Shown: positions 13,974-64,000, counted from the first letter of the stretch. The stretch is DNA of 64,000 nucleotides from Candidatus Woesearchaeota archaeon (GCA_038874135.1 JAVZCZ010000001.1:224001-288000), one strand, 5' to 3'. The notes: generated by a model from the sequence alone, not told the origin. Translations and numbers: made by a program.

Positions 13974-14393
13974 TTAGAAGGATTTTCTTATTGCCTCTGC
14001 AACTTTCTTCATCTCTCCGTCATGGTAGGTATATTTTGAAGCGAATAATTTGAAGTTATCCCCACTCTTTCTCGGAATTATGTGAAAGTGTATGTGATTT
14101 ATGACTTGGCCTGCGGCTGCTCCGTTGTTCTGAACTATGTTAGCTCCTTCCGCTCCTGTTCCCTTAATAACTGCGGCGGTTACCTTCTTGATAACAAATG
14201 CCAGCTTTGACAGTTCGCTTTCTGGTATGTCTAAGATGCTTGTATAATGCTTTTTTGGGATTACTAAGGTGTGCCCCTTAGCAACAGGATTTATGTCCAG
14301 AAATGCGAAGCAGTGTTCATCTTCGTAAACTTTTTCAGATTTTACAGATGAATTTGCTATATTGCAGAATATGCACTCTTCCATTTTTCTCAC
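13974..14393 (-). CDS. HIT family hydrolase (intact histidine triad)
   Basis: CIFC, AFLDINP, GHTLVIPKKH, GQVINHIHFHIIPR. Confidence 0.93.
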   Translation of the reverse strand: MRKMEECIFCNIANSSVKSEKVYEDEHCFAFLDINPVAKGHTLVIPKKHYTSILDIPESELSKLAFVIKKVTAAVIKGTGAEGANIVQNNGAAAGQVINHIHFHIIPRKSGDNFKLFASKYTYHDGEMKKVAEAIRKSF

Positions 14394-41942: not shown

Positions 41943-42563
41943 TCAAGGCATCCTTCTAAGCTGCTTTATTAGATAGTTCTCAACCCTTTCCGCCCTATCA
42001 GGAGTTTTGCTCTGCTCAGCTTTTGATCCTGCATTCTCAGCTGGCTTTTCAGCTTTCTGCACAGATTCTGGTGTTGATGCTTCCTGCCCTGGTTCTAACT
42101 TCCTATCAAGATTTATTGGCTTTGGCTTCTCCTTCTCAAAATTAGAAATCTGCTTAGCCTGCTCTTTCAATGCAAGCTCCACCATAGACATTTGCTCTTC
42201 AGAAAGCTGCCTTGGCTGCCACTGAAAGTTAATGCCGTCTTCAGAATAGCGCGGGATTATGTGGATGAGAAGGTGTGCAGTGTCCTGCCCTGCAGCTTCG
42301 CCATTCTGAACGAGAATATTAGTGCCCTGAGCGTCCAAGGCAGAAAAAAGCACCGCGGAAATGCTATTAGCCACAACAAGAAGGTGTCCTGCAACATAAT
42401 CAGGAGTAGCTTCCAAGATAGGATAATGCTGCTTTGGAGCTAAAACTACATGCCCACGCGAAACGGGCCGCTCACTCAGAAAAGCCACTGCCATCTCATC
42501 TTCATAAATCTTAAAACTTCTAAACTTACCTGCAATCGCATCACAGACCATACAACTACTCAT
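41943..42563 (-). CDS. HIT-fold protein, degenerate triad (HLLIH), low-complexity C-terminal tail
   Basis: CMVC, GHVVLAPKQH, NILVQNG..AGQ...HLLIHIIPR. Confidence 0.85.
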   Translation of the reverse strand: MSSCMVCDAIAGKFRSFKIYEDEMAVAFLSERPVSRGHVVLAPKQHYPILEATPDYVAGHLLVVANSISAVLFSALDAQGTNILVQNGEAAGQDTAHLLIHIIPRYSEDGINFQWQPRQLSEEQMSMVELALKEQAKQISNFEKEKPKPINLDRKLEPGQEASTPESVQKAEKPAENAGSKAEQSKTPDRAERVENYLIKQLRRMP

Positions 42564-43118
42564 CTAGGCACCCCTCTCTTTTCCAACTAGGACTAACTTC
42601 TTATCAAGATTAACAGGTTCAGAAGCCTTTCTGCCAAAAAGTTCTGAAAATTTCTGTACAATCAAAGACTGCACTCCTTCCAGCTCCTTCTCAGAAAACC
42701 CCTTTCCCTCCAGAGAGAAAGCAGAAATCCCATCCGAAGGCATCCTCGGAATTATGTGAATCATGAAGTGAGAAGCCTTCTGCCCAGCAGCAGTCCCATT
42801 AGCAATGAATATGTTCGTGCCCTTAACATTAAAAGCCCTTATCAGCGCATTTGAAAGATGCTTAGAAACCTCCATAAGATGATAAACAATTTCGGGTGGG
42901 ATTTGAGGAAGTATCGCATAGTGCTCCTTAGGAAAAAGGAGCAGATGCCCAGGATTAGCAGGATTAATATCCAAAATTGCCAATACTGAATCATCTTCAT
43001 AGACCTTCCTGGACTGAACTTGACCGGAGACTATGTGACAGAATATGCACTGCTGCTTCTGAATTCTAAGAATCTGTTCGGGACTCAACTTAGAAAGATC
43101 TCCCTCTGAAACTGCCAT
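42564..43118 (-). CDS. HIT-fold protein, degenerate triad (HFMIH)
   Basis: CIFC, LDINPANPGH, NIFIANG..AGQ...HFMIHIIPR. Confidence 0.85.
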   Translation of the reverse strand: MAVSEGDLSKLSPEQILRIQKQQCIFCHIVSGQVQSRKVYEDDSVLAILDINPANPGHLLLFPKEHYAILPQIPPEIVYHLMEVSKHLSNALIRAFNVKGTNIFIANGTAAGQKASHFMIHIIPRMPSDGISAFSLEGKGFSEKELEGVQSLIVQKFSELFGRKASEPVNLDKKLVLVGKERGA

Positions 43119-43163: not shown

Positions 43164-44387
43164 TTATATTATTCCTCCACCACATATTTTATTATTTAAA
43201 ACTAGAACAAATCTGCCCATAGGTTGAACCTCTTCAAATTTGTCAAAGATTAGTGGTGAAGAAGTAGAAATTTTAACCTTGCATATTTCCAAAAAATTGA
43301 TTTTAGAATTATCATCCTTAATAATATGAAGGTCAGCTGAATCAATTTTTTCATAAATCTCAGTTATACTGCAATCCGTCTTTTGAGGACCTAGTCTTAA
43401 AAGTATTTTTTCATTGAGATTTAATGAAGTTTCAGATATCCAAAATATAGTTGCAGTTACTTCTTTCGAAATGATTGGCATTGCTCCATTACAAATTACA
43501 CATCCCCGATCAATTTTTGTTTTTGGTTCTATACTTATTCCTACACTTTCTCCACTATTTACTTCATACTTTTGTTTTAGAAATGAATGTATTTGACTTA
43601 CGCGTGTTTCAGTATTGTAAGGAACAATTATGACATTATCGCCAACTTTTAATCTGCCAGATTCTAATCTTCCAACTATTATTTGTTGGTTATCTATATC
43701 ATAAACATCTTGAACTACCATACGCACGCTTGGATTGCTTTCTTTCTTAGGTAAAATAAAACTATCCAAAGCTTCTGCTAAAGTATTGCCATCATACCAC
43801 GGCATATTCTCTGATTTTCTCACTATGTTATCCCCATCCCTAGCTGTTATTGGAATGATGCTCATCGGGGTTATTGTGATGTTATTCAGAAATTTGAGTA
43901 TTTCAGATTTCACTTCTTCAAATCTTTTTTTATCATAATTAACTAAATCCATCTTGTTTATTACCACAATAATTTGAGATATTCCTAAAAAGTTCAGGAG
44001 ATATGCGTGTCTTTTTGTTTGCTCTTTTACACCTTCCTTTGCATCGATTATTAGAATTCCTGCTTCGGCTTGAGAAGCTCCTGTGATCATATTTTTTATT
44101 AACTCTTTATGTCCCGGCGCATCAATTATTGTATATTTTCTATTTTTTGTTTTAAAAAACACTTGAGTTGTGTCCATAGTAAACTGGTATTCTATCTCCT
44201 CTTTCAAGCTATCTGCAATAAATGCAAATTCCATTTCCTGGCCTAGCTCTGAACAATTTCTTTTCAATTCCTTCAATTTATCTTCAGGAATGCTATTTGT
44301 ATCAAAAAGTAATCTTCCAATTAGAGTGGACTTACCGTGATCAACATGCCCAACTATAACCATGTTTATATTTGCACATTCTTCCAT
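43164..44387 (-). CDS. cysN: Sulfate adenylyltransferase large subunit (GTPase), no fused APS kinase
   Basis: [53 protein letters not shown]; clustered with cysD. Confidence 0.88.
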
Positions 44388-45241
44388 TAATGAATCACCT
44401 TAATTAATAGTATAATCCCTTCAATAAGAGTTGCAGTTCCTATAAAATGAGTTAAAGTTTCAGTATTTGAATTTTTAACAGTTAAGGTTGCAAGAGGAAC
44501 CGCAATAATAGCTCCAATTAATAGGTACGGTAGTAAAATCCAATCAACTGATTTTTTCAGTATAAAATAAGTCGTGATCCCAACAAAACAGGTTAGTGCT
44601 TCAGCAAATGAAGTGATAGCCACCGCTTTTTTAGCATTTATCCCAGCAAATAGTTGACCACTAGTCACAAGTGGGCCATAACCTCCCCCGCTAACTCCTT
44701 TGTTAAAAGAAGCCATAGCACTTACTAAAATTAATTTTCTCCAAGAAAATTTGGTTACTCTATTTAGACGTATCAAGATTAATAAACTCATAAATATTAT
44801 CATAATGCTAATATAAAGGTTTAACCAAAATTGTGAAATCTTTATTGCAAAGATTATTGCAGCAATAGTTCCGAATATGCTGCATATTGAAAGTATTGCT
44901 GCAATTTTTAAATCTAAAGATATTTTTGACGATATATTGTTTTTATTGGTGCTTCTAATTTTTTTGTTAAAAATATGGATAATAAATTCAGGTATTTTCG
45001 AGTGAAAATCAACGTTTCCAAGTTTATGATGAAAATATGCAGCTAAAATTCCGGTTACAAACTCTGAGAGAAGAATAGCTGGAACGACTTGAAACGAATC
45101 AAATCCCATGAGTAATAAAATTGGAGCGAGCAGTGTACCATAACCCATTCCGATAGTTGAATCAAAAAATTCTGCTATGAATGCAAAAATTATTATTACT
45201 ACACCTAAAATTGGATAAAGTGTGAATGTCAAGCTGTACAC
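44387..45241 (-). CDS. TauE/SafE (TSUP) family sulfur-compound transporter
   Basis: [16 protein letters not shown] and [12 protein letters not shown] repeats; multiple TM segments. Confidence 0.85.
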
Positions 45242-45242
45242 C

Positions 45243-46043
45243 TCACATGTATCCTAAGCTCCTAAGTTTTTGCATCATGTAGCTCTTTTCTTTATCTTGT
45301 GAACGACCAGACCTTTCGGCTATTTTTGTTATTTCAAGTTCTTTAACTATTTCTTCAACATTAGAAGCGTTAGATTCAACAGGGAGACAACAGGGAGCGC
45401 AGCCTATACTGCGGTAACGTTTACCATCTTTTGCAAAGTAAAGTGGTACAATTGGAATATTTTCCCTTTGTATATACCGCCATATATCCAGCTCAGTCCA
45501 GTGAAGTAGAGGATGAACTCTTATATGATTTTCGTTATCATATAAGGTGTTGTACTGATCCCAAAGCTCAGCAGGCTGGTGTTTATAGTCCCAATTGAAG
45601 TTTTCATCTCTTGGCGAAAAATATCTTTCTTTAGCTCTTATTCCGTGCTCATCTCTTCTTATACCAAGGAGTATTGCTCTGAATTTGTATTTTTCTATTG
45701 TTTGTTTAAGTGCTTCTGTTTTAAGTGCAGTACAACATTCAAATCTACCTTTTTCAGGTCCTATTCCGTTTTTAATTGCTTCTTCATTCTTGCTTACTAT
45801 TAGATTGAGATTCCATTTTTCAGCATACTCGTCTCTAAATTTATATATCTCAGGAATTTTATAGGTTGTATCAATGTGTATAATAGGAAAAGGAATTTTT
45901 CCAAAAAAAGCTTTTCTCGCCATCCACAACAAACTGGTGGAATCTTTACCTATACTCCACAAAAGAGCTATATTTCTAAATTCAGAATATGCTTCTCTTA
46001 TTATATATATCGTCTTATTTTCTAAATACTCTAAGTAATCCAA
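45243..46043 (-). CDS. cysD: Sulfate adenylyltransferase small subunit
   Basis: WSIGKDS PP-loop, HIDT, LKTEALK, RRDEHGIRAKERYFS, RVHPLLHWTE, YRSIGC, ERSGR; TTG start with GGAGG SD. Confidence 0.93.
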   Translation of the reverse strand: MDYLEYLENKTIYIIREAYSEFRNIALLWSIGKDSTSLLWMARKAFFGKIPFPIIHIDTTYKIPEIYKFRDEYAEKWNLNLIVSKNEEAIKNGIGPEKGRFECCTALKTEALKQTIEKYKFRAILLGIRRDEHGIRAKERYFSPRDENFNWDYKHQPAELWDQYNTLYDNENHIRVHPLLHWTELDIWRYIQRENIPIVPLYFAKDGKRYRSIGCAPCCLPVESNASNVEEIVKELEITKIAERSGRSQDKEKSYMMQKLRSLGYM

Positions 46044-46085
46044 TTTAATATCCTCCTTCTAACATTTATTTTTAATTTTCAAAAG

Positions 46086-48032
46086 TTATTGCAATAAACT
46101 TTTTCCTTCAAAGGATTGAGAGTAGTTAATTTTTAATATATCCAATATTGTAGGGGCTATATCAATTAAGGAGGGATTCTTTTTATTAATCGGAAAATTT
46201 GTGAAAAGTACTCCTGGAACCTCGCTATAATCTACAATATGATCTCCATTCCATAGTTTAGTATTATCCATGATAACTTCAGAAGTAAAACCTCCAATAA
46301 CGCTTTGCCAAGCCATACGATAACCTGGCTCAAATCCTATTAATATATCTGGAGAATCAAATACATAATCGCCGGAGTATATATCAGTAGATTTGTAAAC
46401 TTTTTTTATGATCGTTCTATTTGTTTTAGGATCTTTGAAATCTTTTAATCGCATAATTATCTCATCAATGAGAATTTCTTTATTCTCGGGATCAACAATT
46501 CCGTTTTTTTCTCTTCCTTTAAGGTTTAAGTAAATTCCTGAAAAACCTACAGAATAAGCTTGAGTTTTATTCCAATCCACATATTTGAAAAGTTCACCTG
46601 CATCATTCTCACTGATATTTTTTTTCAAAGTCAAAAACCCATTTCTCATAAGCCACGTATTTATATTAACAGCTCTTTCAAAACTAGTAAATCCGTGGTC
46701 TGAGAATATTATAAGCGCAGTATTATTATCGATACTATCTAACACTTTTCCAATTAGTTCATCTTTCTGCGTATAATAGTTTATAATTGCTTCATTAATT
46801 AAAAAATCTTTCGAGAAATTAAAAATATTTTTATCATCCCAATTGACATGTTGAAGCCTATCCCCCGCGTCAAAACCAAAAGCTAGCACGCCAGAATCTC
46901 TTTGTTTAAACTTATTAAACTCATAAAAAAACATTTTAGTTCTTTCAGATTCAATCTGGTTTATTTGATCTAAAAAAACTTTTCTCGGTATTGCATAATC
47001 ATTAAGTGCATTAGTATCCTCTGGCATTCCGAGAGTATAAAATAATCCAATTTCTCTCGAAAGTTTATAAGAGTAGTCCCTCGGATAGGATATATCAACT
47101 AGCGTTCTTTCAGGATTAAACTGAATTGAAGTCATATACAAACGAAAGTTCGGCTCTATTGATAAAAGATACACTTTAGTTATTGCAGATACCTGTTTTA
47201 AAAAACCCACATTGAAATCAATTTTTATCCAATCGCTCCATTCATTCACTTTAACCTCATACTTTTGAGCATCTAAAAAGATGGTGATGTTATTCTTGTC
47301 TAAGACAATTTTAATTGACTTTTCAATAGGTTTCATATTAGATGATAGAGGTCCTTTGATTACAGAATTAATTATCCCGTTACTCATCGACACATGGATT
47401 ATGTGGGGTGAGCTGTTTTCGGATAAATCCGAAGCATAGAGATAGTATCCGCTTTCAAAACCTCTTATATCAGGAACACCAAGACCAGAAAGCATTACAC
47501 CGTTGATTTTCTCAGGAGGAAAAGTTGCTGGCCACCTTATCACATCAGTAGGTACTCCTGCATCCGAAGTGATCTTCCAAAATGGAACACTTTTTATAGG
47601 ACTTTCGAAGATAAGACCATTTTTAAATTTTTGTTTTGTAATTGATATTTCAGGCAGATAAGTGTTTGGATCTCTTATTATAAAATCTATAACGCCATGT
47701 TTTCCTGGATTTACTCCTGTAGCAGCAGTTGTCCAAGCTACTGGAGTCTCAGGAGGGATAGTAGTTTCAAGTGCAGAAAAACTTCCAAGCTTTGATAATC
47801 GTAAAAAGTTAGGAAGCTTACCTTCTCTCATAAGCTCATTAACTATTTTATAATCCATTGCATCAATCCCAATTATAAGAACTTTAGTATAATTGCCAGC
47901 CATTGAACCACTTTTATTTTTTTTTTCAAAAAAAATTGGATTTTTTAATGTTAAAAATAAAATCAAGCAGGAAATAATAAGTAATAAGAATATAAATATT
48001 TTGATTGTCTGAATACCACTCACTTTTAACAT
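46086..48032 (-). CDS. Membrane-anchored alkaline phosphatase/nucleotide pyrophosphatase (NPP) family protein
   Basis: N-terminal TM; IGIDAMD, PPETPVAW...TGVNPGKHG, DRLQH, SDHGF, GDH, DIAPTIL. Confidence 0.88.
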   Translation of the reverse strand: MLKVSGIQTIKIFIFLLLIISCLILFLTLKNPIFFEKKNKSGSMAGNYTKVLIIGIDAMDYKIVNELMREGKLPNFLRLSKLGSFSALETTIPPETPVAWTTAATGVNPGKHGVIDFIIRDPNTYLPEISITKQKFKNGLIFESPIKSVPFWKITSDAGVPTDVIRWPATFPPEKINGVMLSGLGVPDIRGFESGYYLYASDLSENSSPHIIHVSMSNGIINSVIKGPLSSNMKPIEKSIKIVLDKNNITIFLDAQKYEVKVNEWSDWIKIDFNVGFLKQVSAITKVYLLSIEPNFRLYMTSIQFNPERTLVDISYPRDYSYKLSREIGLFYTLGMPEDTNALNDYAIPRKVFLDQINQIESERTKMFFYEFNKFKQRDSGVLAFGFDAGDRLQHVNWDDKNIFNFSKDFLINEAIINYYTQKDELIGKVLDSIDNNTALIIFSDHGFTSFERAVNINTWLMRNGFLTLKKNISENDAGELFKYVDWNKTQAYSVGFSGIYLNLKGREKNGIVDPENKEILIDEIIMRLKDFKDPKTNRTIIKKVYKSTDIYSGDYVFDSPDILIGFEPGYRMAWQSVIGGFTSEVIMDNTKLWNGDHIVDYSEVPGVLFTNFPINKKNPSLIDIAPTILDILKINYSQSFEGKSLLQ

Positions 48033-48035
48033 TCT

Positions 48036-48275
48036 TTAATCACCATTCTGCATCTTTAAACTCTTGATCCAACGCCATAATTTTAGTATTACTTTTTTCA
48101 TTGGCCTAAACAAGATTTTTATAAAGAAACCAGCAATTACTGAAAAAATAAATAGTAGATAAGGCCAGATTGAACCTACAACTATTCCTCCAGTTCCAGG
48201 ATCAATATAAGCTGAAACTGACGGAAGCAATAGTAAAAAAGTCAATAAGTAAATTAACTCATCAGTAATTCTCAT
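48036..48275 (-). CDS. Small membrane protein with signal peptide and AYIDPGTG motif
   Basis: Hydrophobic signal ending VSA, then YIDPGTGG, one TM segment and a basic tail; first gene of the operon. Confidence 0.75.
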   Translation of the reverse strand: MRITDELIYLLTFLLLLPSVSAYIDPGTGGIVVGSIWPYLLFIFSVIAGFFIKILFRPMKKVILKLWRWIKSLKMQNGD

Positions 48276-48551
48276 AACTTCACACTAATAAAAAATGGGT
48301 ATATAAAGATTGCTAGATCAGATATAAAGATTTAAAAAATAACAGTAAATTTAAACCAGATGAAATATTTCAGTATTTAATAAGCAGAATTCATAATCTT
48401 TAAAAATGGAACAAGTATTTTAGAAGATAGTTAATGCTTAAGTAAATTTAAAATACAAAGTGAATAATTTTTACAAGTAAAATAAAGGTTTGTTTATTGA
48501 ATTAAAAATGATAGCAATAACTAAAAAAAGAACAAATTAAAGTGGTTTCCT

Positions 48552-50048
48552 ATGAAGTTTAAAAGAGAAATTTTTATGTCTATTTTAATTTTGACAATTG
48601 GAATTAGCTTAACATTACCTTTTATTATAAGAAAAATGGTGTTGAATAATAGTACTACTCCTTGTGAAAATTGTAATGTTATCTTAATTACGTTTGATAC
48701 TTTGAGAGCTGATCATCTGGGAGTATATGGCTATACCAGGAATACTTCTCCAAATATTGATAAATTGGCTAAAAGATCTTACGTCTTTACAAATGCATTG
48801 AGTCAAGCGGGAGAAACACGTTTGTCAGTGCCATCATTTATAACCTCTAAGCTTCCTTTGAGCGACAATATATTAGACCTTAAATATAATAATTATGTGT
48901 ATATAAGCAGTTTACACCAAAATGAAACAACAATTGCGGAAATCTTATCAGAGAATAATTATAATACATATGCTGTGATGGGATATTCTGTAATGCTGAA
49001 TCCTAAAACAGGTGTCGCACAGGGTTTTAAAGATTTTGAATATGACTGCAGTAACAATCCTCACACATATAACATATGTCCACCAGATTGGGTTACGTTA
49101 AAAGCAATAAAAATATTAGAACAGAACATTACAAATAAACCATTTTTTTTATGGGTATATTATTTTCAACCACACGCGCCTTATAATCCGCCTTTAAGAA
49201 TATTCCAGAAATTCAGTAGTAATCAGGAATACTCAGATAAAGATCAAAATTTACCTGTGAATTATGATAAAAAGATAGGAATGCTATTGGAAGAAAATGC
49301 ATCAAAGAAGAAAAATTCACCGATTTACTTTCTTTCTGGTGCCGGAGAGTTTAAGTATCTTCATCTGAATGAAAGTGACATTCAATGGTTTATAAATGCT
49401 TACGATGGAAATATAAATTATGCAGACGAACAATTCGGGAGACTATTAATGTACTTAGAAGAATCAGGCTTGTTAAACAATACAATAATAATTATAAATT
49501 CGGATCACGGGGAAATGCTTGGAGATAACTATAACATTGGACATGGAGGATTAAAATATAGTGTATTGCATGTGCCTATAATAGTTTATGTCCCTGGGAG
49601 GAAAGGTGGAAAGATAGCTGAGCCCGTTACAAACGCAGATATAATGCCTACAATTCTAAGTTTGTTAGAAATAAAAACTGATCTAAAAATGATAGGAAAA
49701 AATTTATTTGAAATTAAAGAAAAAAGAGTGCAAATAGCTGAAGCGCCTAATTCTTTCACTGTAGTATATAAAAATTGGAAAATTTTATCATACTACTCTT
49801 CATTTAATGAAATAGAAGAAAACTGCAGTAAAAATGATCGCGTGTTTGATATACTAAAAGACCCACAAGAAAAAAATGGAAAATGGCAAAATGATGAACA
49901 AAAAGAAATAATTTGTAACACCTTAAAAAAAGAATATTTTAAGATAATAACAAACAGAAATGAACAAGTGGAAGTGACAGACGATACAAGCATAAATCTT
50001 GACACCGCTACCATAGAAAAATTAAAATCATTAGGATATGCCAATTAG
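48552..50048 (+). CDS. Membrane-anchored sulfatase-like (AP superfamily) protein
   Basis: NVILITFDTLRADHL, PHAPY, YDGNI.YAD, SDHGE, LHVP, DIMPTIL, KLKSLGY; Thr at the nucleophile position. Confidence 0.85.
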   Translation: MKFKREIFMSILILTIGISLTLPFIIRKMVLNNSTTPCENCNVILITFDTLRADHLGVYGYTRNTSPNIDKLAKRSYVFTNALSQAGETRLSVPSFITSKLPLSDNILDLKYNNYVYISSLHQNETTIAEILSENNYNTYAVMGYSVMLNPKTGVAQGFKDFEYDCSNNPHTYNICPPDWVTLKAIKILEQNITNKPFFLWVYYFQPHAPYNPPLRIFQKFSSNQEYSDKDQNLPVNYDKKIGMLLEENASKKKNSPIYFLSGAGEFKYLHLNESDIQWFINAYDGNINYADEQFGRLLMYLEESGLLNNTIIIINSDHGEMLGDNYNIGHGGLKYSVLHVPIIVYVPGRKGGKIAEPVTNADIMPTILSLLEIKTDLKMIGKNLFEIKEKRVQIAEAPNSFTVVYKNWKILSYYSSFNEIEENCSKNDRVFDILKDPQEKNGKWQNDEQKEIICNTLKKEYFKIITNRNEQVEVTDDTSINLDTATIEKLKSLGYAN

Positions 50049-50160
50049 AATATAATAAAAAAAATCTAAGATTTTAAGTTACCTGTGAAGTAGTAGGTTT
50101 AATTACAAATACAGGAAAATCGCAATAGCATTATAAGCTAAAAACTTTTTCAACTCAAAA

Positions 50161-51534
50161 ATGAAAATTTTACTACTCAACCCGGAGAGTTCCAGCAGGG
50201 AATTCAGAGATCCTCTACTATTAAGATGCGGAGGCGTTGAAAAAAAAGCACCATACCTATTACCTCCGATAGGTCTAGTATATTTAGCATCTTTGCTCTC
50301 ACATAATTTTTATGTTGAGATAGTTGACCGGGCAATCCAAAAAAAGAGTTTAGGATATATAAAAAATTTTGATTGCATAATCGTGAATGTCGGTTTGTCC
50401 AGCATCAATGAAGATTTGAAGTTTTGCCGAAAATTAAAAACAAAAAAGAATGTGATTGGCTTATGCGGCGGCGCACCTGCTTATTTTTCAAAAGAGGTAA
50501 TGAGTAAAGAAAAAGAAATAGACTTTATAATATTAAATGTAACGCCAGAACTTGTGAAGATATCTAAAGAAAACATAAAATCCAAAAACTTTGAAGGTGT
50601 GGAAAATGTTTGTTACCGAAAAAATAGAGAAGTAATAACAAATAGAATAGTTCCTCTCAGAAATATCAACAAGTTACCATCTCCACGCTATGAACTTCTA
50701 CCTAAAGGGTATTATGACATACTTGCAAAAGGCAAAAAAATTGCCGCAATTATTACAAGTCTTGGCTGTCCTTTTTCTTGCAATTTCTGTTCAGCAAATA
50801 CCGGCAAAAATTATTCTGAAAGAAATCTTAAAATACTTTTTTCTGAAATTGACACTTTATGCAAAAATTATGAGGACATAATCTTTTGGGATGATAATTT
50901 CACTGCTAATAAGAAGAGATGTGAAAAAATATGCGATTATCTAAAAACTAAAAAAATTAATTTCAGGTGTCTTTCACGAGCAGATGGGATTGATTATGAA
51001 CTTTTGAAAAATATGAAAGAAGCAGGATGCTATCAAATACAATTCGGAATTGAATCCGGTTCAGAGAGAATGCTCTCATTAATGAATAAACGCTTAAATC
51101 TTTTCAAAGCAAAGAAAACGCTTAAAGCGTGCGATATGTTAGGAATTGAAACAGTAGCATTTTTCATAATTGGCTATCCCGGAGAAGATAAAAGTGACAT
51201 AGAAAAAACAGTGAAGTTTATTAAAGATACTAATCCTGATTTTATTTCAATAAATAATTATATTAAAATGCCCGGCTCAACTGACCAACCTAAAAAAATT
51301 TCAGAAATCAAAAATGTGAAAAAATATAATGAAACTATTATTAACAAAATTTATCATGAATATTATTTCAATTTAAGTTATGTTGCAGCACGAACTGAAA
51401 AGTTAATAAGACATTTAGATTATGCTTCATTATTCCTGAAACAAAATATAAAATTCTGGTTATTAAAAGAGGGAAAGTTGTGGAAAGCAATAAGAAAGTA
51501 TAAAAAAATAAAAAGAGGATATATTAGCAAATAA
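50161..51534 (+). CDS. Cobalamin-binding radical SAM protein (class B methyltransferase-like)
   Basis: PPIGLVYLAS, TSLGCPFSCNFC, DDNF, FGIESGS, FIIGYPGE. Confidence 0.88.
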   Translation: MKILLLNPESSSREFRDPLLLRCGGVEKKAPYLLPPIGLVYLASLLSHNFYVEIVDRAIQKKSLGYIKNFDCIIVNVGLSSINEDLKFCRKLKTKKNVIGLCGGAPAYFSKEVMSKEKEIDFIILNVTPELVKISKENIKSKNFEGVENVCYRKNREVITNRIVPLRNINKLPSPRYELLPKGYYDILAKGKKIAAIITSLGCPFSCNFCSANTGKNYSERNLKILFSEIDTLCKNYEDIIFWDDNFTANKKRCEKICDYLKTKKINFRCLSRADGIDYELLKNMKEAGCYQIQFGIESGSERMLSLMNKRLNLFKAKKTLKACDMLGIETVAFFIIGYPGEDKSDIEKTVKFIKDTNPDFISINNYIKMPGSTDQPKKISEIKNVKKYNETIINKIYHEYYFNLSYVAARTEKLIRHLDYASLFLKQNIKFWLLKEGKLWKAIRKYKKIKRGYISK

Positions 51535-51547
51535 AGAGGATTGTTAA

Positions 51548-53140
51548 ATGAATAAGAAGTTTAGCTTAGAAACAATTGATATAATTTTTATAATAATTCT
51601 CCTAACGATTTCAACAATCATAAAAATTCAGACATATCCGGATGGCATCGCGATAGATGAAGCAAACCATTGGGCAGAAGTAAGACACCACAAAATCCTA
51701 GAAGTATACACAGGAAATTACAACTCTCCAATGCCTGAAAGCCCCCTCTTTTTTTATATAAACTATCTAATGATACGCATAAAAAATGACCTACTCATCT
51801 TCAGAATACCGCAAATACTCTTCTCATACGCCACAATAATACTATTCTACATATTCGCAAAAACATTCTTCAATCGATATACTGCATTTCTAGCATCATT
51901 TCTCCTAACTATCTCTCGTTCATTCAACTTAGTAAGCGCTTATGTAAACCCACATATTTATCAAATGTTTTTTTCTCTGGCTACGATAATAACATATATG
52001 TTAGCAGTCAAAGAAAAAAATGAAAAATATTTAATCTGGACTTTTATATTTGCAGCAATATGCTATCTTATAAACCCTTTAGGAGTTATAACAATTACTA
52101 CACTCATATTCTCATTGTTATTAGTCAAAAATAAATTCATTTATGTAAGTAAAAACAAAAGTAGTAAAAAATTAGTGGTATCAAAAAATTTAATATTTGG
52201 GTTATTAATATTTTTTTTGATAACGATAGTTATTTCACCTGGCCAATTTTTAAAAGGACGTTTTATTAAAGATACCTTATTACGAAGAAGTTTTATACAA
52301 GAAGAAAAAAGAAATATGAATATCCCTTCTTTTTCTTTTTCATTATTAATAACTTTATGGAATGTGAACGTGGGTTTTACAAAGGTCTTTATAATAATAG
52401 GAGCAATAGGAGCGATAATAATTTCATTTAAGAAAAAAATTCTATTGCCCCTTCTGATTTACCTTCTAACCTATTTATTCGTTATGTCATTTGCCAAAGG
52501 TGCTGTGACTTATACAGTTCATATTATTATGTTTTTATATATCTTTTTTTCAGAAATAGCATTCAAAATAATAAATATATTTTTTATTTTTGTGCATAAA
52601 GCTTTTTCAAACAAACTAAGTCTTATACAAAAAAAAGAAAGAATAAATACTTATTTAAGAATTTTAGGGCTTATTGTTATCCCGATACTTCTATTATTTT
52701 TATATGAAAGTGAAAAAAAATATTACAAATGTAATATGCAAACATCGCTAGGACACGAGCAAAGTAAAAAAGTGTATGAGTATATAAAAAGTAAAAACGA
52801 AAGCGGCGTTTATATACTTCTAGATGTTATTGCGAGTTCAATAAATTATTATGTAAGTAGGGATAAGGTTGATATTCATGTTTTTGGAATTAATCATTTG
52901 TCAAATTTTAGTTTAGAAATGATAAATGAGGCGCTTCCACCTGAACATTATTATTATGATTATATTGTTTTAGAAGATTATGATTATCTTAATAAAAATT
53001 CTAGTAGGTATACTACTTTTCAAAAAATAGAGGAAACATGTATTCTGGAAACAAAAATTACACGGTCAAGTTGTTTCGCTGATATTCGCAGAATGTCTAT
53101 TTTTAACTGCAAAAACATGACACTTACTTCTAAAAGTTAA
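51548..53140 (+). CDS. GT-C fold glycosyltransferase (ArnT/PMT-like)
   Basis: DE motif after TM1 (AIDEANH), PLFFY, R..Q..FS..T, many TM segments, extracellular C-terminal domain. Confidence 0.75.
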   Translation: MNKKFSLETIDIIFIIILLTISTIIKIQTYPDGIAIDEANHWAEVRHHKILEVYTGNYNSPMPESPLFFYINYLMIRIKNDLLIFRIPQILFSYATIILFYIFAKTFFNRYTAFLASFLLTISRSFNLVSAYVNPHIYQMFFSLATIITYMLAVKEKNEKYLIWTFIFAAICYLINPLGVITITTLIFSLLLVKNKFIYVSKNKSSKKLVVSKNLIFGLLIFFLITIVISPGQFLKGRFIKDTLLRRSFIQEEKRNMNIPSFSFSLLITLWNVNVGFTKVFIIIGAIGAIIISFKKKILLPLLIYLLTYLFVMSFAKGAVTYTVHIIMFLYIFFSEIAFKIINIFFIFVHKAFSNKLSLIQKKERINTYLRILGLIVIPILLLFLYESEKKYYKCNMQTSLGHEQSKKVYEYIKSKNESGVYILLDVIASSINYYVSRDKVDIHVFGINHLSNFSLEMINEALPPEHYYYDYIVLEDYDYLNKNSSRYTTFQKIEETCILETKITRSSCFADIRRMSIFNCKNMTLTSKS

Positions 53141-53376
53141 TAACAAGCAAGAACCAAATTAAAAGAATTAAAAAACATTTAATTCAAAAGAAATTAAATT
53201 TACAATACGGTGGTTAGAGTGTAACAAAAAATGATTAAAAGAATATACGATTTTGAGAGTTAAAAAAATTATTATAGTAAACGAATTAGAATTTAAACAG
53301 AATGGAAAAGTATATTCTAAAATTGCATATTTAAAAAACGAAAATTTTTATAATACTCATACAATATTAAGATTTT

Positions 53377-54498
53377 GTGAGAATCCTAATATTTAACAAA
53401 TACTGTCCTAAGCATCCTCTGGCTGGAGGAGCTGAATTCAGATTATATGAAGTAATGAAGCGCATAGCTTTGAAAGGTAATAAAGTTTATCTGGTGTCAG
53501 CAATTTTTCCCGGAGCAAAGCGAAAAGAAATTCTGGATGGCATTCACATCTACAGAATAGGCCTGAGAACAGCTTACAATACTTTGTTTGTTCACATACT
53601 TGGAGTTTTTAGTATGCGGAGGTGGGTCAATAGATTTAAACCAGAAATAATTTTTGAAGATATAAGTCCACTTCCGTGGTTTTCTCCCTTAATTGTTCCT
53701 AAGAATAAAAAGGTAATTATAATGCATCATTTAAATGGAAAAACATTCTTTAAAACTCAAAGCCTAATTAAAGCGGCAATAGCGTATATTCTTGAAAAAT
53801 CAGTATTTGTATTATACAAAAAAGAAAGAATTATTGTTATAAATAAGTATTTAGAAGAGAAACTCAAAAACGAAGGTTTTCAGGACATAATTAGAATAGA
53901 AGATGGTGTTGATACAAAAAAGTATGTTCCTAACAAAAGGATTAAGACAAGAAATCCGACAGTGATATTCTTAGGAAGACTAGATAAGAGGAAGGGTGCA
54001 CACCTGCTATTGAAAACATATCAGAAAGTAAAAGAGAGCATTCCAAATGTTGAATACTGGATTGTGGGAGATGGAGTTGAAAGGAAAAAGTTGGAGCAGA
54101 TGGCAATACGAATTGGAGAGCTCGGACACGGCATAAAATTCTTAGGATTTAAGAGCGGCAGTGAAAAGATAAGGATAATACAAAAAAGTTGGCTGATTGC
54201 AGTTCCCTCACTTGCAGAAGGTTATGGCTTAGCTGTTCTTGAAGCAAATGCCTGCGGAGTTCCAGCAATTGCAAATAATGTTCCCGGACTTTCAGAATCA
54301 GTAATACACGAAAAAACAGGCATACTTGTAGATTGTTCAAATACAGAAATATTTGCTAAAAGGATTATAGAAATATTAAAAGATAAAAAGAGGTTAGATA
54401 AGATGGGCGGGAATGCTCGCAAGTTTGCACTCAACTACTCTTGGGATGAGTGCGCTGAAAAAACCTTACAAGTGCTAAAATCTGCGGTGAAAGATTGA
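53377..54498 (+). CDS. Glycosyltransferase family 4
   Basis: HPLAGGAE, FLGRLDKRKG, EGYGLAVLEANACGVP. Confidence 0.92.
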   Translation: MRILIFNKYCPKHPLAGGAEFRLYEVMKRIALKGNKVYLVSAIFPGAKRKEILDGIHIYRIGLRTAYNTLFVHILGVFSMRRWVNRFKPEIIFEDISPLPWFSPLIVPKNKKVIIMHHLNGKTFFKTQSLIKAAIAYILEKSVFVLYKKERIIVINKYLEEKLKNEGFQDIIRIEDGVDTKKYVPNKRIKTRNPTVIFLGRLDKRKGAHLLLKTYQKVKESIPNVEYWIVGDGVERKKLEQMAIRIGELGHGIKFLGFKSGSEKIRIIQKSWLIAVPSLAEGYGLAVLEANACGVPAIANNVPGLSESVIHEKTGILVDCSNTEIFAKRIIEILKDKKRLDKMGGNARKFALNYSWDECAEKTLQVLKSAVKD

Positions 54499-55424
54499 CA
54501 AGCAAGCTTTTAAGTATAATAATACCTAACTTTAATGGAGAAGAGAGCATAAGAGACACTATAAAGAGTGCTGAGCTTTCAGCAAGAGGAATAAAGTTTG
54601 AGGTAATAGTGGTTGACGACTGCTCCACAGATGATTCTCAAAAGATACTTAAAAGGATCAATAGAAACGACAGGAGATTAAAAGTTATAAATAACATTAA
54701 GAGAAGGGGAGCTGCCTTCTGCAGAAACATTGGAGCAAAAAAAGCTGAAGGCAAAGTTCTTCTGTTTATAGATAATGATGTATTCTTGAAAGGAGATACT
54801 GCTAAGAAACTGGTAAAATCTGCGCTGCATAATAGAGGAGTATCTTTTCCAAAGATAAGATTTAGTAACAGAAGGATAATGTGGCCAGCTTCAAAAGAGG
54901 AAGAGAAATTTTTAGGTATAAGTGCATGTTTTGCTATTCCTAAAAAGTTATTTAAAAGAGTTGGATTTTTTGATGAGGCTTATGAAACATATTTGGAAGA
55001 TGCCGATTTCTTTGTAAGATGCAAGCTAAACGGGGTTGGCTTTTATTATGAAAAAAATGCCGTGGCAATTCACAAGGTGCCGAAATTTTACGATGGAACC
55101 AGAAGGTATTTCTTAGAGAACAGAAACTTAACATATGGGATGTTAAAGTTTTTGAAAATTCCAAAAAAAGAAAAAAGTCCATTCGTGTTAAGTTCACTTT
55201 TAAAAAATCTTGTCTGCGGATTGTTTAATTTTAGATGGTTTGATTGGAGCTATTATGATAGAAATTTAAACTTTAAAGAAAAAGTTAATTTACTTTTTAG
55301 AAAGCATAGAAAACTCTCTCAAAATTGCGGTTGCTTTACAGTACTGGTGTTTTTTGTAGGAATAATAACTGGATTGTTTAGATTTTTTATTTCAAAATCA
55401 AAAACAACATTTATAAATAAATGA
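54495..55424 (+). CDS. Glycosyltransferase family 2
   Basis: SIIIPNFN, VVDDCSTD, RNIGA, FIDND, GFFDE...EDAD. Confidence 0.92.
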   Translation: MTSKLLSIIIPNFNGEESIRDTIKSAELSARGIKFEVIVVDDCSTDDSQKILKRINRNDRRLKVINNIKRRGAAFCRNIGAKKAEGKVLLFIDNDVFLKGDTAKKLVKSALHNRGVSFPKIRFSNRRIMWPASKEEEKFLGISACFAIPKKLFKRVGFFDEAYETYLEDADFFVRCKLNGVGFYYEKNAVAIHKVPKFYDGTRRYFLENRNLTYGMLKFLKIPKKEKSPFVLSSLLKNLVCGLFNFRWFDWSYYDRNLNFKEKVNLLFRKHRKLSQNCGCFTVLVFFVGIITGLFRFFISKSKTTFINK

Positions 55425-55443
55425 GTATAGTTACATACAGAGA

Positions 55444-56268
55444 ATGATCGTCCATTACCGCAAAATAAAAGAAGATAAAGGTTTAATGTTTTTGAGAAAA
55501 AGCTGGTTGAAATTTAAAAAAGATGTTTTTATTATAAAAACTTTAGCGCTTAATGAGTTTAAGCTTAGATATTTAAATGCAAAATTTGGTTACTTTTGGT
55601 TAGTTATCTCTCCGCTAGTGATGTTATTAGCATTATACATAGTGTTTTCTAAAGCAGTTCATATAGAAGTTCCACATTATCAGTTTTTTCTGCTTTTAGG
55701 TATTGTAATTTGGAATTTTTTTTCAGAAGCCACCTTGCAAGGAATGAATTCGTTAATAAACAACAAGGGGGTATTAAACTCAATCTCTATTTCAAAACAC
55801 TACTTAGTTATTGCTTCTTTTATTGCTTCATTACTATCATTTTTTATAAATTTAGGCATATTTTTTTTGTTTGAAATGGTAAGAGGAATAACATTCAAAT
55901 TATCTCATCTATTGTTTGCGTTGACCATTCTTGAATGCGCACTTTTGGTTTTAGGGATTTCGTTTATTTTATCTGTCGCTTATCCACTATCACGAGATGT
56001 TGCACATTTGTGGAATATATTCATAACTATTAGTTTTTGGGTTTCTCCAATTGTTTACAGAGAAACGCAAATTCCAAAGCAATACTTAAGATATTACATG
56101 CTTAACCCGATCGCCAGAATAGTGAATGAGGCAAGAGACATTTTAATATATGATTATGTTCCTTCAATAAAACAAATATTTATTACTATAGCTATAGTTT
56201 TAATAATTTTTATATTTGGTTTAATATATTTTAATAAAAAAGTAGATAAAGTTGTAGAAGCCCTATGA
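55444..56268 (+). CDS. wzm: Polysaccharide ABC exporter permease (Wzm/TagG)
   Basis: FKLRYLNAKFGYFWLVISPL, WNFFSE, RDVAHLW, SPIVY, LNP. Confidence 0.9.
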   Translation: MIVHYRKIKEDKGLMFLRKSWLKFKKDVFIIKTLALNEFKLRYLNAKFGYFWLVISPLVMLLALYIVFSKAVHIEVPHYQFFLLLGIVIWNFFSEATLQGMNSLINNKGVLNSISISKHYLVIASFIASLLSFFINLGIFFLFEMVRGITFKLSHLLFALTILECALLVLGISFILSVAYPLSRDVAHLWNIFITISFWVSPIVYRETQIPKQYLRYYMLNPIARIVNEARDILIYDYVPSIKQIFITIAIVLIIFIFGLIYFNKKVDKVVEAL

Positions 56269-56277
56269 GGATAAAAA

Positions 56278-58215
56278 ATGAATGTAATAGAATTAGACAA
56301 TATTTCCAAAATATACGCTGCTAATAATTGTGAAAAAAGTATTTATGCTCTAAAAGATTTTAGTATAAAGATTAAAAAGGGAGAGATAGTAGGAATTATC
56401 GGACCTAATGGTTCTGGAAAAACAACACTCTTAAAAATAATTGCAGGAATTTTAAAGCCGGATTCTGGAAGGGTAATAGTTAAAGAAAAAATACTTCCAT
56501 TTATTGAGATGGGTTCCGGATTAAGATTAGAACTGAGCGGGAAAGAGAATATAAGAATGAATTGTGCCATGTTAGGAATACCACCTAATCAGATTGAAGA
56601 ACAAATGAAAAGAATAATCTCTTTTTCAGGATTATCTGAATTTATTGATGAACCAGTAAGAACTTACTCAAGTGGTATGAAAGCAAGACTCGTATTTAGC
56701 AGTTTTCTATTAAATGATTTTGATGTTTTATTAATTGATGAAGCAATTGCAGTTGGAGACGAGCTATTTCGTAATAAGAGTTTTAATTTATTACAAAAAT
56801 TAAAAAATTCAAAAAAAACTGTTTTAATCGTATCACATGACTTAAACATTATTCAAAAAAATTGTAACAGGGTTTTATACTTAGATAACGGGATAAAAAG
56901 AGAGTATGGTCCTCCGGAAAAAGTCATCAGTAAATATTTTGATGATTTATATAAAAGAGTAACAAAGAGATTTATCCAGAAATTTGAAAAAGTTGTAGAT
57001 GAACTTAAAAATTTAAAAAATAGTTCAGATGTGATTAAAGAAGAAAAAACTGAGGATGCTACTTTATTTGAAAAAATTAGAGCTTGGAGCGCAGAAAAAG
57101 AAAGAGAGAAAGTTTTAAAACGCATTAAAGAGTTAGAGTTTTGGTTAGAAGACAATTGTTACGAACAGATAAACATTTTAAATAAACAGTTAAGTTATAT
57201 AAATGAAAATTTAGAAAAAAGTAAAGATAATAGAATAAAATCTAGATTGCTGAAACAGAAAGTAAAGATATTAAAAATATTAGAAAGAATATTAACAGAA
57301 GATTATACACTCAAAAAAAATAATTTTGAAGAATTTAGTAAAGAGATAGTACTCTTAGTAAAAAATGGATTACAAGTAATAAAAGATAAAAAGAGAGAAT
57401 TGTTTGAACTTAGAAGATATAAAAATTTAATAGAACAGGAAGTGTCTGACAAAAGTGTCGTTAGAGAGCAATTAGATTATATTGAAAGTAGGTTACAATT
57501 GTTAATGTTGTTTGATGGAAGAGTATGCACTAATGATGAATTGAAAAAAATAAAAGAAACAGCCGAAGAAAATCCTCACGGCGGAATACAAATAGCACAA
57601 GATATTTTAAACAAGAAAGTATTAAGAATAGAAGAAGAATTAGTTCAAACAAAGTTCAGATTGGAAAATAAGAAAGAGAATTCTGTAAAATTAAAAAACA
57701 AGATGAAAAAATTAGAAAAACAAAAAGATAAAATACTAAAAATTCTGATAAGTATACAAAAACAATTGAAAATAAGAAGAGCAGAAGATACACTGAAAAT
57801 AATCAAGGTGAATTTGAAAACTAAAATCGGAAATACTTATAAAGAAACACAAACTTTTCAAACGCATGCAAAAATGAAAATTGAGATTGAGTATTATACA
57901 GAAAAAATAATTAAAGATCCAGTCTTCGGAATTGCTTTCTATAGTTACGATGGACGATTGATATATGGACCTAACACTGAGATAGACAAACTTTGTTTAA
58001 AAGAAATAGGAAGGAGAGGAAAGATAGAATACACAATAGAAAGATTACCTTTTTTGCCTGGGAAGTACATATTGACTGTAGCAGCACATACAAAAGATAA
58101 CTATATCCCCTATGATATAAGAAACAAAACTATAATATTTAGAGTTATGGGAGAAAATAGAGAGAACGGATTAATTCACATTGAAGGCAGATGGAAACAT
58201 TTTAGATATGTTTAA
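56278..58215 (+). CDS. wzt: Polysaccharide ABC exporter ATPase (Wzt) with long coiled-coil insert and C-terminal carbohydrate-binding domain
   Basis: GPNGSGKTT, YSSGMKARL, IDEAIAVGD, VSHD; about 280 aa of heptads; PVFGIAFYS.DG..I.GPNT...LPFLPGKY Wzt_C. Confidence 0.88.
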   Translation: MNVIELDNISKIYAANNCEKSIYALKDFSIKIKKGEIVGIIGPNGSGKTTLLKIIAGILKPDSGRVIVKEKILPFIEMGSGLRLELSGKENIRMNCAMLGIPPNQIEEQMKRIISFSGLSEFIDEPVRTYSSGMKARLVFSSFLLNDFDVLLIDEAIAVGDELFRNKSFNLLQKLKNSKKTVLIVSHDLNIIQKNCNRVLYLDNGIKREYGPPEKVISKYFDDLYKRVTKRFIQKFEKVVDELKNLKNSSDVIKEEKTEDATLFEKIRAWSAEKEREKVLKRIKELEFWLEDNCYEQINILNKQLSYINENLEKSKDNRIKSRLLKQKVKILKILERILTEDYTLKKNNFEEFSKEIVLLVKNGLQVIKDKKRELFELRRYKNLIEQEVSDKSVVREQLDYIESRLQLLMLFDGRVCTNDELKKIKETAEENPHGGIQIAQDILNKKVLRIEEELVQTKFRLENKKENSVKLKNKMKKLEKQKDKILKILISIQKQLKIRRAEDTLKIIKVNLKTKIGNTYKETQTFQTHAKMKIEIEYYTEKIIKDPVFGIAFYSYDGRLIYGPNTEIDKLCLKEIGRRGKIEYTIERLPFLPGKYILTVAAHTKDNYIPYDIRNKTIIFRVMGENRENGLIHIEGRWKHFRYV

Positions 58216-58227
58216 CAAAAAAAGAAA

Positions 58228-60024: not shown

Positions 60025-60027
60025 TGG

Positions 60028-61224: not shown

Positions 61225-61237
61225 ACCTTTCTAATTT

Positions 61238-62488: not shown

Positions 62489-62498
62489 AGTTTTCGCC

Positions 62499-63749: not shown

Positions 63750-64000
63750 ATTTTTACCTCTCGTTTTAATTCGTGTTGATGAATTACAACATCTCTAGGT
63801 ATATTCGTAGTGTATACTACTAGATTAAGCTCTTTTAATATTTCTAATAATTCTTTCCCTCTTCTCATTCGGGTTTCATAGTTATCTCCATTTTTTGTAT
63901 ACCATGTTGCTGCTCTTTGGTCTTCATCTCCTTTAAAAAGTAGTCCATATTTTTCCTGATTTATATCCAGTTCAGAGTTTAGGTTTATACAAAGTGTATT
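63746..64000 (-). CDS. C-terminal fragment of a gene running off the window, possibly a B12-binding radical SAM protein
   Basis: Open frame NTLCINLNSELDINQEKYGL...WYTKNGDNYETRMRRGKELL...EVKI*; its TGA overlaps the next ATG (ATGA). Confidence 0.55.
   Translation of the reverse strand, partial: NTLCINLNSELDINQEKYGLLFKGDEDQRAATWYTKNGDNYETRMRRGKELLEILKELNLVVYTTNIPRDVVIHQHELKREVKI

Follow-up and report, generated by a model that had tools for sequence, protein, structure and literature searches.

A 64,000-nucleotide stretch of a Candidatus Woesearchaeota archaeon genome (GCA_038874135.1 JAVZCZ010000001.1:224001-288000; C1:224001-288000 of a 0.91 Mb genome, hereafter the window) carries, at positions 43164–50048, genes for sulfate activation beside two enzymes of the alkaline phosphatase (AP) fold, one resembling nucleotide pyrophosphatases/phosphodiesterases (NPPs) and one resembling sulfatases. 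Gene content and neighborhoods argue that this is a real, conserved module that extends the recently recognized AP-fold sulfation systems. The best explanation of the whole, held tentatively and at not quite an even chance, is a mobile, non-assimilatory sulfation module that lacks adenosine 5′-phosphosulfate (APS) kinase and uses its AP-fold enzymes as catalysts. The module probably serves surface sulfation and not assimilation or scavenging, and it is possible, with the balance leaning against it, that the sulfuryl transfer itself is done by one or both AP-fold enzymes.

Open reading frame (ORF) calling and Pfam and NCBIfam scans gave the following genes in window coordinates:

48036–48275, minus strand: YIDPGTG membrane peptide, 79 aa (ORF, conserved motif)
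46086–48032, minus strand: NPP-like AP-superfamily enzyme, 648 aa (PF01663, 116.9 bits; gathering threshold 23)
45243–46043, minus strand: CysD, sulfate adenylyltransferase small subunit, 266 aa (NF003587, 365 bits; cut-off 195)
44387–45241, minus strand: TauE/SafE (TSUP) anion permease (PF01925, 95 bits)
43164–44387, minus strand: CysN, GTPase subunit of sulfate adenylyltransferase, 407 aa (TIGR02034, 330 bits; cut-off 336)
42564–43118, minus strand: HIT-fold protein 1, triad HFMIH (PF01230)
41943–42563, minus strand: HIT-fold protein 2, triad HLLIH (PF01230)
48552–50048, plus strand: sulfatase-fold protein P0001, 498 aa, signal-anchored (PF00884, 169.7 bits; gathering threshold 25)
50161–60024, plus strand: glycan island, 3′ of the sulfatase-fold gene

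The peptide, NPP-like, cysD, TauE, cysN and two HIT genes form one minus-strand operon, and the sulfatase-fold gene, divergent from it, is the first gene of a Wzm/Wzt glycan island. An initial annotation of this DNA had listed the peptide–NPP–cysD–TauE–cysN series with a divergent sulfatase-like gene, and the same ORFs and families were recovered here; the operon as drawn there is correct for its five genes but overlooked the two HIT genes 3′ of cysN. Also beyond that annotation are the shared reading frame of the peptide and NPP genes and the position of the sulfatase-fold gene at the head of the Wzm/Wzt island.

Activated sulfate without a recognized consumer

The source genome is a single contig of 909,956 bp, 99.4% complete, with 40.8% GC. 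Its archaeal gene content (aEF-1alpha, an A24 prepilin peptidase with an archaeal C-domain and an Agl23-like GT-C enzyme) and the source names of the nearest homologues, Woesearchaeota and Nanoarchaeota, identify the host by sequence as a DPANN-type archaeon, and it is a tiny archaeon of symbiotic type. The only match to PF01583 in the genome (20 bits, at C1:212248) was rejected as cysC since the gene is FtsY, and no cysH was found in the genome, the only other PAPS_reduct match being rejected as a TtuA/NcsA-type tRNA thiolase next to ThiI. Sulfotransfer_1, _2 and _3 had no genome match at E values up to 0.1, Arylsulfotran_2 (arylsulfate sulfotransferase; ASST) had no match in the genome, the best genome match to UDP-sulfoquinovose synthase was a generic short-chain dehydrogenase/reductase (SDR) epimerase at 51 bits, and tblastn found no further AP-fold paralogues of either type in the genome.

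This single-contig, 99.4% complete genome therefore lacks the cysC and cysH of assimilatory sulfate reduction and of the 3′-phosphoadenosine 5′-phosphosulfate (PAPS) pathway. Because cysC, cysH and the searched P-loop sulfotransferase families were not found, cysDN here can serve neither assimilation nor the canonical PAPS route. On gene content we regard assimilation, the PAPS route and the sulfoquinovose route as excluded for the window's genome; the last of these, suggested by a UDP-sulfoquinovose-synthase-like gene in genome G008, was rejected on finding only generic SDR epimerases. The APS made by CysDN has no recognized consumer in this genome. The earlier statement that the window holds no cysC, cysH or PAPS sulfotransferase thus survives the genome-wide search that had been proposed alongside it, and applies to the complete genome. 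Five other module genomes were also searched, one of them the complete AR15 chromosome: the one PAPS_reduct member (E up to 1e-5) was the module cysD, with none in G045; cysH was found in zero of these five genomes and cysC in two of them, with no cysC found in AR15.

CysD passes the NF003587 subfamily model and lies below the equivalog models (281 bits against a cut-off of 397, and 283 against 413), and it is 78% identical to the CysDs of two loci with the same operon, L037 and L038. CysN, which falls below its TIGR02034 cut-off, is matched equally well by EF-1alpha models; it is a paralogue of the housekeeping aEF-1alpha at window positions 25418–26710 (39% identity), encoded by a separate gene beside cysD, and has no APS-kinase domain. 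TauE, which also lies between cysD and cysN in L037, L092 and G008, is most simply read as the module's sulfate importer. In an alignment of the window CysD with those of 17 further loci, CysDs with an adjacent CysN are 266–267 aa long (eight of eight) and those without are 268–284 aa (ten of ten), one ORF call of 324 aa including an N-terminal extension. The CysN-less proteins carry an insertion of ~17 residues (K-E-K...G-D-S...S-x-Q-D-x-E-L-x-G-W) that may make up for the absent GTPase subunit. In several loci a small ribbon-helix-helix (RHH)-like ORF (TxSIPKPL...GFSSxSSYV; L037 12024–12236, L063 3229–3462, L014 10430–10753) lies immediately upstream of cysD; it is a possible dedicated regulator.

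Linkage across two domains of life

We collected 80 loci with NPP-like homologues from species-representative genomes and examined neighbors within 10 kb of the NPP-like gene. Archaeal sources were Woesearchaeota, Nanoarchaeota, Aenigmatarchaeota, Altiarchaeota and Iainarchaeum, and bacterial sources covered at least eight phyla, among them Planctomycetota, Omnitrophota, Bdellovibrionota, Acidobacteriota and Moraniibacteriota; the loci are not phylogenetically independent, and they span two domains of life. A sulfatase-fold neighbor occurs in 50 of the 80 loci, cysD in 30 and cysN in 15; HIT and TauE genes occur in 4 each, Wzm in 4 and Wzt in 5, and an APS kinase in only 3. The cysD gene mostly follows the NPP gene immediately, and otherwise a single RHH-like ORF, TauE, sulfatase-fold or ASST gene lies between them. 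As a baseline, cysD is present in 7 of 40 same-order relatives, once per ~1 Mb genome, so the chance of finding it in a random 20-kb segment should be well below 1%. Neighborhood statistics, which the initial annotation had proposed as a check, thus tie the AP-fold genes to cysD far above chance (30/80, with sulfatase-fold genes in 50/80), and these counts, taken across the two domains, argue firmly that the linkage is not a product of chance. Unbiased clustering of all ORFs in the loci yielded no further recurrent family that might act as a sulfotransferase.

Archaeal and bacterial cysD genes are 60–69% identical, which suggests from sequence that the module moves as a whole unit. In the window itself, GC content drops from ~0.40 to ~0.30 from ~44 kb onward and stays at 0.27–0.33 over the module and glycan island (44000–64000), and neither cysD nor an NPP-like gene was found in the same-genus and same-family genomes searched; together these suggest recent acquisition of the locus. 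Within the order-level sample, NPP-like genes are found in those genomes that have cysD and lack cysC (G000, the window's own, G008 and G013), and four relatives with cysN–cysC fusions lack the NPP-like family. Fusions of an NPP-like with a sulfatase-fold domain occur in P0110 (1057 aa) and L057.

Two relatives carry variant arrangements. In G016 (L113 7110–9851) a 913-aa fusion of pyruvate-kinase barrel, PUA-like, ATP sulfurylase (Sat) and APS kinase domains overlaps a gene for an NPP-like protein without a transmembrane (TM) segment; a second NPP-like gene, a methyltransferase and a TM-less sulfatase-fold gene lie nearby, and the polysaccharide cluster also holds a Wzx-type flippase and a UDP-glucose dehydrogenase. 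Because a non-homologous Sat–CysC fusion here replaces CysDN, the arrangement is an argument for a tie of the AP-fold proteins to activated sulfate as such, and against one to a side activity of CysD. In G008 (L015 7169–15004) the order is NPP-like (432 aa, no TM), UDP-sulfoquinovose-synthase-like (539 aa; NF041015, 411 bits, below cut-off), thioredoxin, epimerase, cysD, TauE and cysN, with no cysC found in the genome and no cysH visible at the L015 locus.

The NPP-like enzyme and its membrane peptide

The NPP-like protein has the motif PPETPVAW with Thr95 at the nucleophile position. Residues D57, the T95 region, N108, D391, H395, D445, H446, D597 and H598 are invariant in 18 homologues, and the protein has the full two-metal ligand set together with a beta-rich insertion at about residues 195–300. 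Foldseek comparison of an AlphaFold model (predicted local distance difference test 81, predicted template modeling score 0.84) returned SPAP, ENPP1, PafA, Xac NPP, ENPP5–7 and PhnA as best matches (E 1e-11 to 1e-8), and because of these matches we assign the modeled protein to the two-metal Thr enzymes of NPP/PafA type, extended here by a large beta-rich insertion. Its domain match, Thr nucleophile, two-metal ligands and NPP/PafA fold all place it within the NPP/type I phosphodiesterase family (PF01663). The homologues closest to it make up a large and well-conserved family whose members have 600–700 residues, with 45–65% identity within DPANN and 34–45% to bacterial members, and their only database label is "predicted AlkP superfamily phosphohydrolase/phosphomutase".

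The peptide encoded just upstream has a signal peptide ending in VSA; the mature chain would start YIDPGTGG and has a single TM helix followed by a basic tail (FRPMKK...). In 18 homologues, residues Y23, D25, P26, G27, T28, G29, P58 and K60 never vary, the last two forming a P-x-K motif in the basic tail. A Y-[IV]-D-P-G-T-[GAS] motif with a TM helix, either as a separate unit immediately upstream of the NPP gene or joined to the N-terminus of the NPP, occurs in ~46 of the 80 loci, bacteria included. Where separate, the peptides have a signal peptide ending in A-x-A, so that on cleavage Tyr would become the first residue of the mature chain; fused forms run from the motif through TM1, a strongly K/R-rich loop and TM2 to the catalytic domain. 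By the positive-inside rule applied to the K/R-rich loop before TM2, an extracellular position is predicted for both the motif and the NPP catalytic domain. The window peptide and NPP ORFs share a frame at 48030–48041, with only TAA and one Arg codon between them (...QNGD*RMLKVSG...), and homologues are fused or split into overlapping ORFs; the same-frame break could be a recent split or a site of stop read-through. A structure prediction for a CysD–peptide complex, asking whether the basic tail docks on CysD, scored 0.00 and is evidence neither way.

A sulfatase-fold subfamily with a threonine nucleophile

P0001 carries the motif QAGETRLSVPS, and a HMMER alignment to human iduronate-2-sulfatase sets T89 on the formylglycine Cys, with T89-R-L-S-V opposite C84-A-P-S-R. 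It therefore lacks the C/S-x-P/A-x-R motif of the S1 formylglycine sulfatases, and it scores below the curated arylsulfatase and choline-sulfatase cut-offs (NF010322, 156.5 against 481 bits; TIGR03417, 104 against 433; NF052527, 102.5 against 850). It does have the PF00884 fold with metal ligands D49, D318 and H319 conserved. Across its subfamily the conserved residues are D49, T89, H208, D318-H319-G-E and H331, and Thr occupies the nucleophile position in 52 of 53 aligned sulfatase-fold neighbors, typically as W-T-x-P-S-H. P0001 is a somewhat divergent member, with a 64%-identical fragment found 3′ of NPP–cysD in an Iainarchaeum contig. The partial match to NF052527 pointed to a Mn-dependent arylsulfatase as a precedent for a Thr-type sulfatase, which we rejected because that enzyme makes formylglycine from Cys61 (PMC12421950).

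P0001 also shows the residue pattern of EptA, MCR and LtaS, with T89, D318-H319, H331 and a predicted extracytoplasmic domain behind a signal anchor. It falls far short of the curated NCBIfam models for these enzymes, on which it scores 30–51 bits against cut-offs of 500–1250, the best being 51 (cut-off 500), 44.5 (561) and 38 (970) bits. N-termini of the sulfatase-fold homologues are either short and K/R-rich with one TM segment, with a lipobox in one case, or a domain of 3–5 TM segments like that of LtaS and EptA; P0001 has a single TM segment and many homologues have 3–5. The multi-TM N-terminal domains matched no Pfam family, and bacterial members often have added TPR repeats. A C-x-x-C pair stands just before the first beta-strand, at residues 38–41 of P0001 (TPCENCNV) and as YKCPDCNV, VCKDCNV and YKCPNCNV in archaeal members.

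Both AP-fold enzymes are thus predicted ectoenzymes. That both have N-terminal TM anchors and metal ligands, as first annotated, agrees with the predicted signal peptides and anchors and the conserved ligands; that both have Thr at the nucleophile position and no formylglycine motif is borne out by the invariant T95 and by the placement of T89 in the iduronate-2-sulfatase alignment.

Glycan island, arylsulfate sulfotransferases and HIT proteins

The glycan island encodes a B12-binding radical SAM (rSAM) protein, PMT_2 (GT-C), GT4 and GT2 glycosyltransferases, Wzm, Wzt with a carbohydrate-binding domain and a nucleotidyltransferase–Wzt_C fusion, and it probably supplies the acceptor. Beside the module in other loci, Wzm/Wzt, GT2, B12-rSAM and PMT-like genes are met with again. 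ASSTs are extracytoplasmic, PAPS-independent sulfotransferases that use aryl sulfate donors. A TM-anchored ASST (PF14269, Arylsulfotran_2) lies in or beside the peptide–NPP(–cysD) operon in six loci: L114 (4630–6009), L042 (13977–15155), L061, L067, L069 and L058, the last with two copies and no cysD. In AR15 (NPP, sulfatase-fold, cysD, ASST), L069, L061, L058 and L067 the gene is inside the operon, and in G013 it follows the NPP gene. These neighbors support a theme of extracellular sulfuryl transfer. The description of the module as sulfotransferase-free agrees with the searches of the window's genome, where no ASST was found, and does not hold as a general statement, given the ASST genes in six related loci.

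The B12-binding rSAM gene (window 50161–51534) and rSAM/SPASM genes (60028–63749) recur in L042, L069, L051 and L052. The window carries three SPASM paralogues, AR15 and L069 carry several, and no curated family cut-off is reached by any of them. Assignment of the three window genes as anaerobic sulfatase-maturating enzymes is unsupported, no such enzyme being among the best 25 of 40–45 NCBIfam matches, all of which are far below cut-offs.

HIT gene 1 follows cysN after a 45-nt gap and HIT gene 2 abuts it without a gap. By alignment, the middle, nucleophilic His is replaced by Met in HIT 1 (HFMIH) and by Leu in HIT 2 (HLLIH), and the same degenerate pair (HFILH, HFGIE) lies beside NPP–sulfatase–cysD in a Woesearchaeota genome (L050/L030; L050 8313–9673). 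The H-x-H-x-H triad is kept in single HIT proteins encoded between cysD and cysN in L072 (3968–4414) and L085 (4555–5001), in the HIT protein of L043 and in an unrelated HIT protein at window positions 13974–14393.

Proposed mechanism and the evidence against it

A published precedent is the pair Agl30 (VNG1056C, membrane-bound) and Agl31 (VNG1057C, soluble) of Halobacterium salinarum, sulfatase-like AP-superfamily proteins that were the first archaeal sulfotransferases named, only in 2025 (Zaretsky et al., mBio 2025, PMC11980604). Both are required to sulfate the iduronic and glucuronic acids of the H. salinarum N-glycan, and expression of either in Haloferax volcanii causes sulfation; the report names no donor, nucleophile, PAPS or cysD link (PMC11980604). 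Because of this genetic precedent, the idea of AP-fold sulfotransferases in the module is plausible but unproven.

In the scheme that we propose, TauE would bring sulfate into the cell and CysD with CysN would convert it to APS, as expected from their families. The sulfate of APS would then end on a cell-surface glycan, either from the adjacent Wzm/Wzt island or N-linked, and the NPP-like enzyme with its YIDPGTG peptide and the sulfatase-fold enzyme would perform or directly assist sulfuryl transfer outside the membrane, as functional counterparts of Agl30 and Agl31. The donor would be APS, or PAPS where cysC is present. Since the catalytic domains are predicted to face outward and APS is made inside, a membrane-bound sulfate carrier would be needed between APS and the AP-fold enzymes. 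We consider quite improbable a more specific, Dlt-like form of group translocation, in which APS loads the carrier and Thr-type AP-fold ectoenzymes (ASST in some lineages) sulfate surface glycans through a sulfo-enzyme, independently of PAPS and P-loop sulfotransferases; the carrier could then be the invariant N-terminal Tyr of the cleaved YIDPGTG peptide, as an aryl sulfate of the ASST donor type, or a polyprenyl phosphosulfate.

Several observations weigh against this scheme. Signal peptides, K/R-rich anchors, one lipobox and the K/R-rich loop before TM2 put the catalytic domains outside, and APS is cytoplasmic. The nearest structures to the NPP-like model by Foldseek are hydrolases, and for this reason a Thr nucleophile alone is no sign of a transferase; the earlier argument from Thr nucleophile to transferase fails on SPAP, PafA and the NPPs, the closest NPP-like structural relatives and all Thr-type hydrolases. 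The active site of the P0001 subfamily (Thr, a His 12 residues past the D-H pair in place of the sulfatase Lys, and no Arg of CxPxR) is presumably nearer to those of the phospho-form transferases EptA and MCR-1 than to those of sulfatases. Half of the cysD loci lack cysN, with the housekeeping EF-1alpha alone present in the archaeal genomes examined. Sulfuryl transfer by the module's own members is a putative activity, and Agl30 and Agl31 themselves are modeled as cytoplasmic-face enzymes, acting on the dolichol phosphate-bound glycan before flipping (PMC12624080). Of the initial proposal that AP-fold transferases move activated sulfate onto surface glycan, what stands is the exclusion of assimilation, the gene linkage and the Agl30/Agl31 precedent; what does not yet stand is sulfuryl transfer by either enzyme.

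Alternative explanations

The alternative that survives best, although we judge it unlikely, places sulfation in the cytoplasm, by an unrecognized APS-using enzyme such as the degenerate HIT pair or another island gene, and has the AP-fold ectoenzymes act only after export, by LtaS/EptA/LCP-like cutting of lipid-carrier phosphodiester or pyrophosphate bonds, by transfer of the sulfated polymer or a phospho-group, or by trimming. It accords with the extracytoplasmic topology, the LtaS/EptA-like N-terminal domain of 3–5 TM segments in many sulfatase-fold neighbors, the EptA-like pattern of active-site residues, the capacity of the NPP fold to cleave phosphodiesters and pyrophosphates, and the nearby Wzm/Wzt and GT-C genes. 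HIT proteins (Fhit/Hint4) bind and turn over APS, and the cysD–HIT–cysN operons of L072 and L085 fit such a role, but HIT genes occur in only 4 of the 80 loci and unbiased clustering yielded no cytoplasmic sulfotransferase candidate conserved over the loci. Post-export action also leaves unexplained why the most constant partner, usually next after the NPP gene, is cysD and not a glycan gene, with some loci (L037, L038, L045, L048) having no glycan genes in reach.

Improbable, in our judgement, is scavenging of sulfate esters, in which the ectoenzymes (with ASST) would free sulfate from host or environmental organosulfates independently of formylglycine, for import by TauE and activation by CysD(N). 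AP-superfamily enzymes are promiscuous towards sulfate esters, and ecto-esterases with an anion permease and activation genes read naturally as serving uptake. In DPANN surveys these genes are annotated as atsA and sat (PMC8091004), mentions of sat/atsA in DPANN papers being generic. Scavenging is unlikely, however, because APS is a nutritional dead end here, with neither cysC nor cysH found in G000 or AR15, and cysH likewise not found in the five other module genomes. The module moreover sits in glycan-synthesis islands, and no Thr-type sulfatase-fold enzyme is known as a sulfatase, the partly matching Mn-dependent arylsulfatase using formylglycine (PMC12421950).

Two weaker possibilities, very improbable even when taken together, are that APS serves as an adenylyl donor or nucleotide intermediate for HIT and NPP chemistry, by attack on the alpha-phosphate with sulfate expelled, or that the genes are merely co-regulated in an acquired low-GC envelope island. 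NPP and HIT enzymes both form nucleotidyl-enzyme intermediates, and the GC drop from ~0.40 to 0.30 across the locus and the failure to find the module in same-genus and same-family relatives fit an acquired island, but the HIT pair here lacks the nucleophilic His, the NPP domain is predicted to be extracellular, where APS would not be expected, and hitch-hiking cannot yield 30/80 and 50/80 co-occurrence over two domains or the Sat–CysC replacement in G016.

Surface sulfation by a kinase-less module with AP-fold catalysts, the explanation that we tentatively prefer, bears on a largely uncharted subject, since prokaryotic surface-glycan sulfation has been little mapped and the module ties a Thr-type branch of the AP superfamily to a sulfate-activating enzyme. 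Its minimal, complete genomes leave few alternative candidates and point to APS over PAPS as donor, and its compact set of five to eight genes is expressible. If the AP-fold enzymes do carry out extracellular sulfuryl transfer, the module would represent new AP-superfamily chemistry and a new way to move an activated group across a membrane, and the "sulfatase" and "sat" annotations in DPANN and candidate phyla radiation metagenomes, now read as sulfur catabolism or assimilation, would need rereading.

Comparison with known systems

In the literature searched, we found no description of a kinase-less CysD(N) link, of the NPP-like partner with its YIDPGTG peptide, of a uniform Thr-type sulfatase-fold subfamily, or of its outside topology and ASST and HIT partners, and no relevant paper on COG3379. 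Like Agl30 and Agl31, P0001 is a sulfatase-like AP-superfamily protein in an archaeal glycosylation cluster without a canonical sulfotransferase, and like Agl30 it has a single N-terminal TM segment. The nearest structures of Agl30 and Agl31 (5G2U and 6HHM) are also among the Protein Data Bank matches of P0001, an indirect link. The role of Agl30 and Agl31 comes from deletion and heterologous expression, whereas that of the present proteins is proposed from gene content and neighborhoods; they are modeled at the cytoplasmic face, Agl31 being soluble, whereas both enzymes here are predicted to be extracytoplasmic; and their report mentions neither an NPP-like partner nor a YIDPGTG peptide, and no HIT or ASST genes.

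With the NPP/PafA/SPAP clade, whose known members hydrolyze nucleotides, phosphodiesters or phosphomonoesters, the NPP-like enzyme shares the fold, the Thr nucleophile, the two-metal site and an Asn near the nucleophile. It differs in its low identity (~11%), in TM-scores of only ~0.4, which stem from large insertions, in its membrane anchoring through the conserved YIDPGTG peptide and in its genomic tie to cysD.

P0001 resembles LtaS, EptA (MCR-1) and OpgB in its membrane anchor, extracytoplasmic PF00884 domain, Thr nucleophile and D-H pair with a His 12 residues later. Those enzymes decorate envelope polymers after export, and many module homologues share their multi-TM N-terminal domain; in contrast to them, the P0001 catalytic domain is overall closer in sequence to true sulfatases, and the module is linked to sulfate-activation genes. 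Finally, as in the cysDNC/NodPQ systems with PAPS sulfotransferases, CysD and CysN here would activate sulfate for non-assimilatory glycan sulfation, but the module has neither an APS kinase nor a P-loop sulfotransferase, and many of its archaeal versions dispense with CysN.

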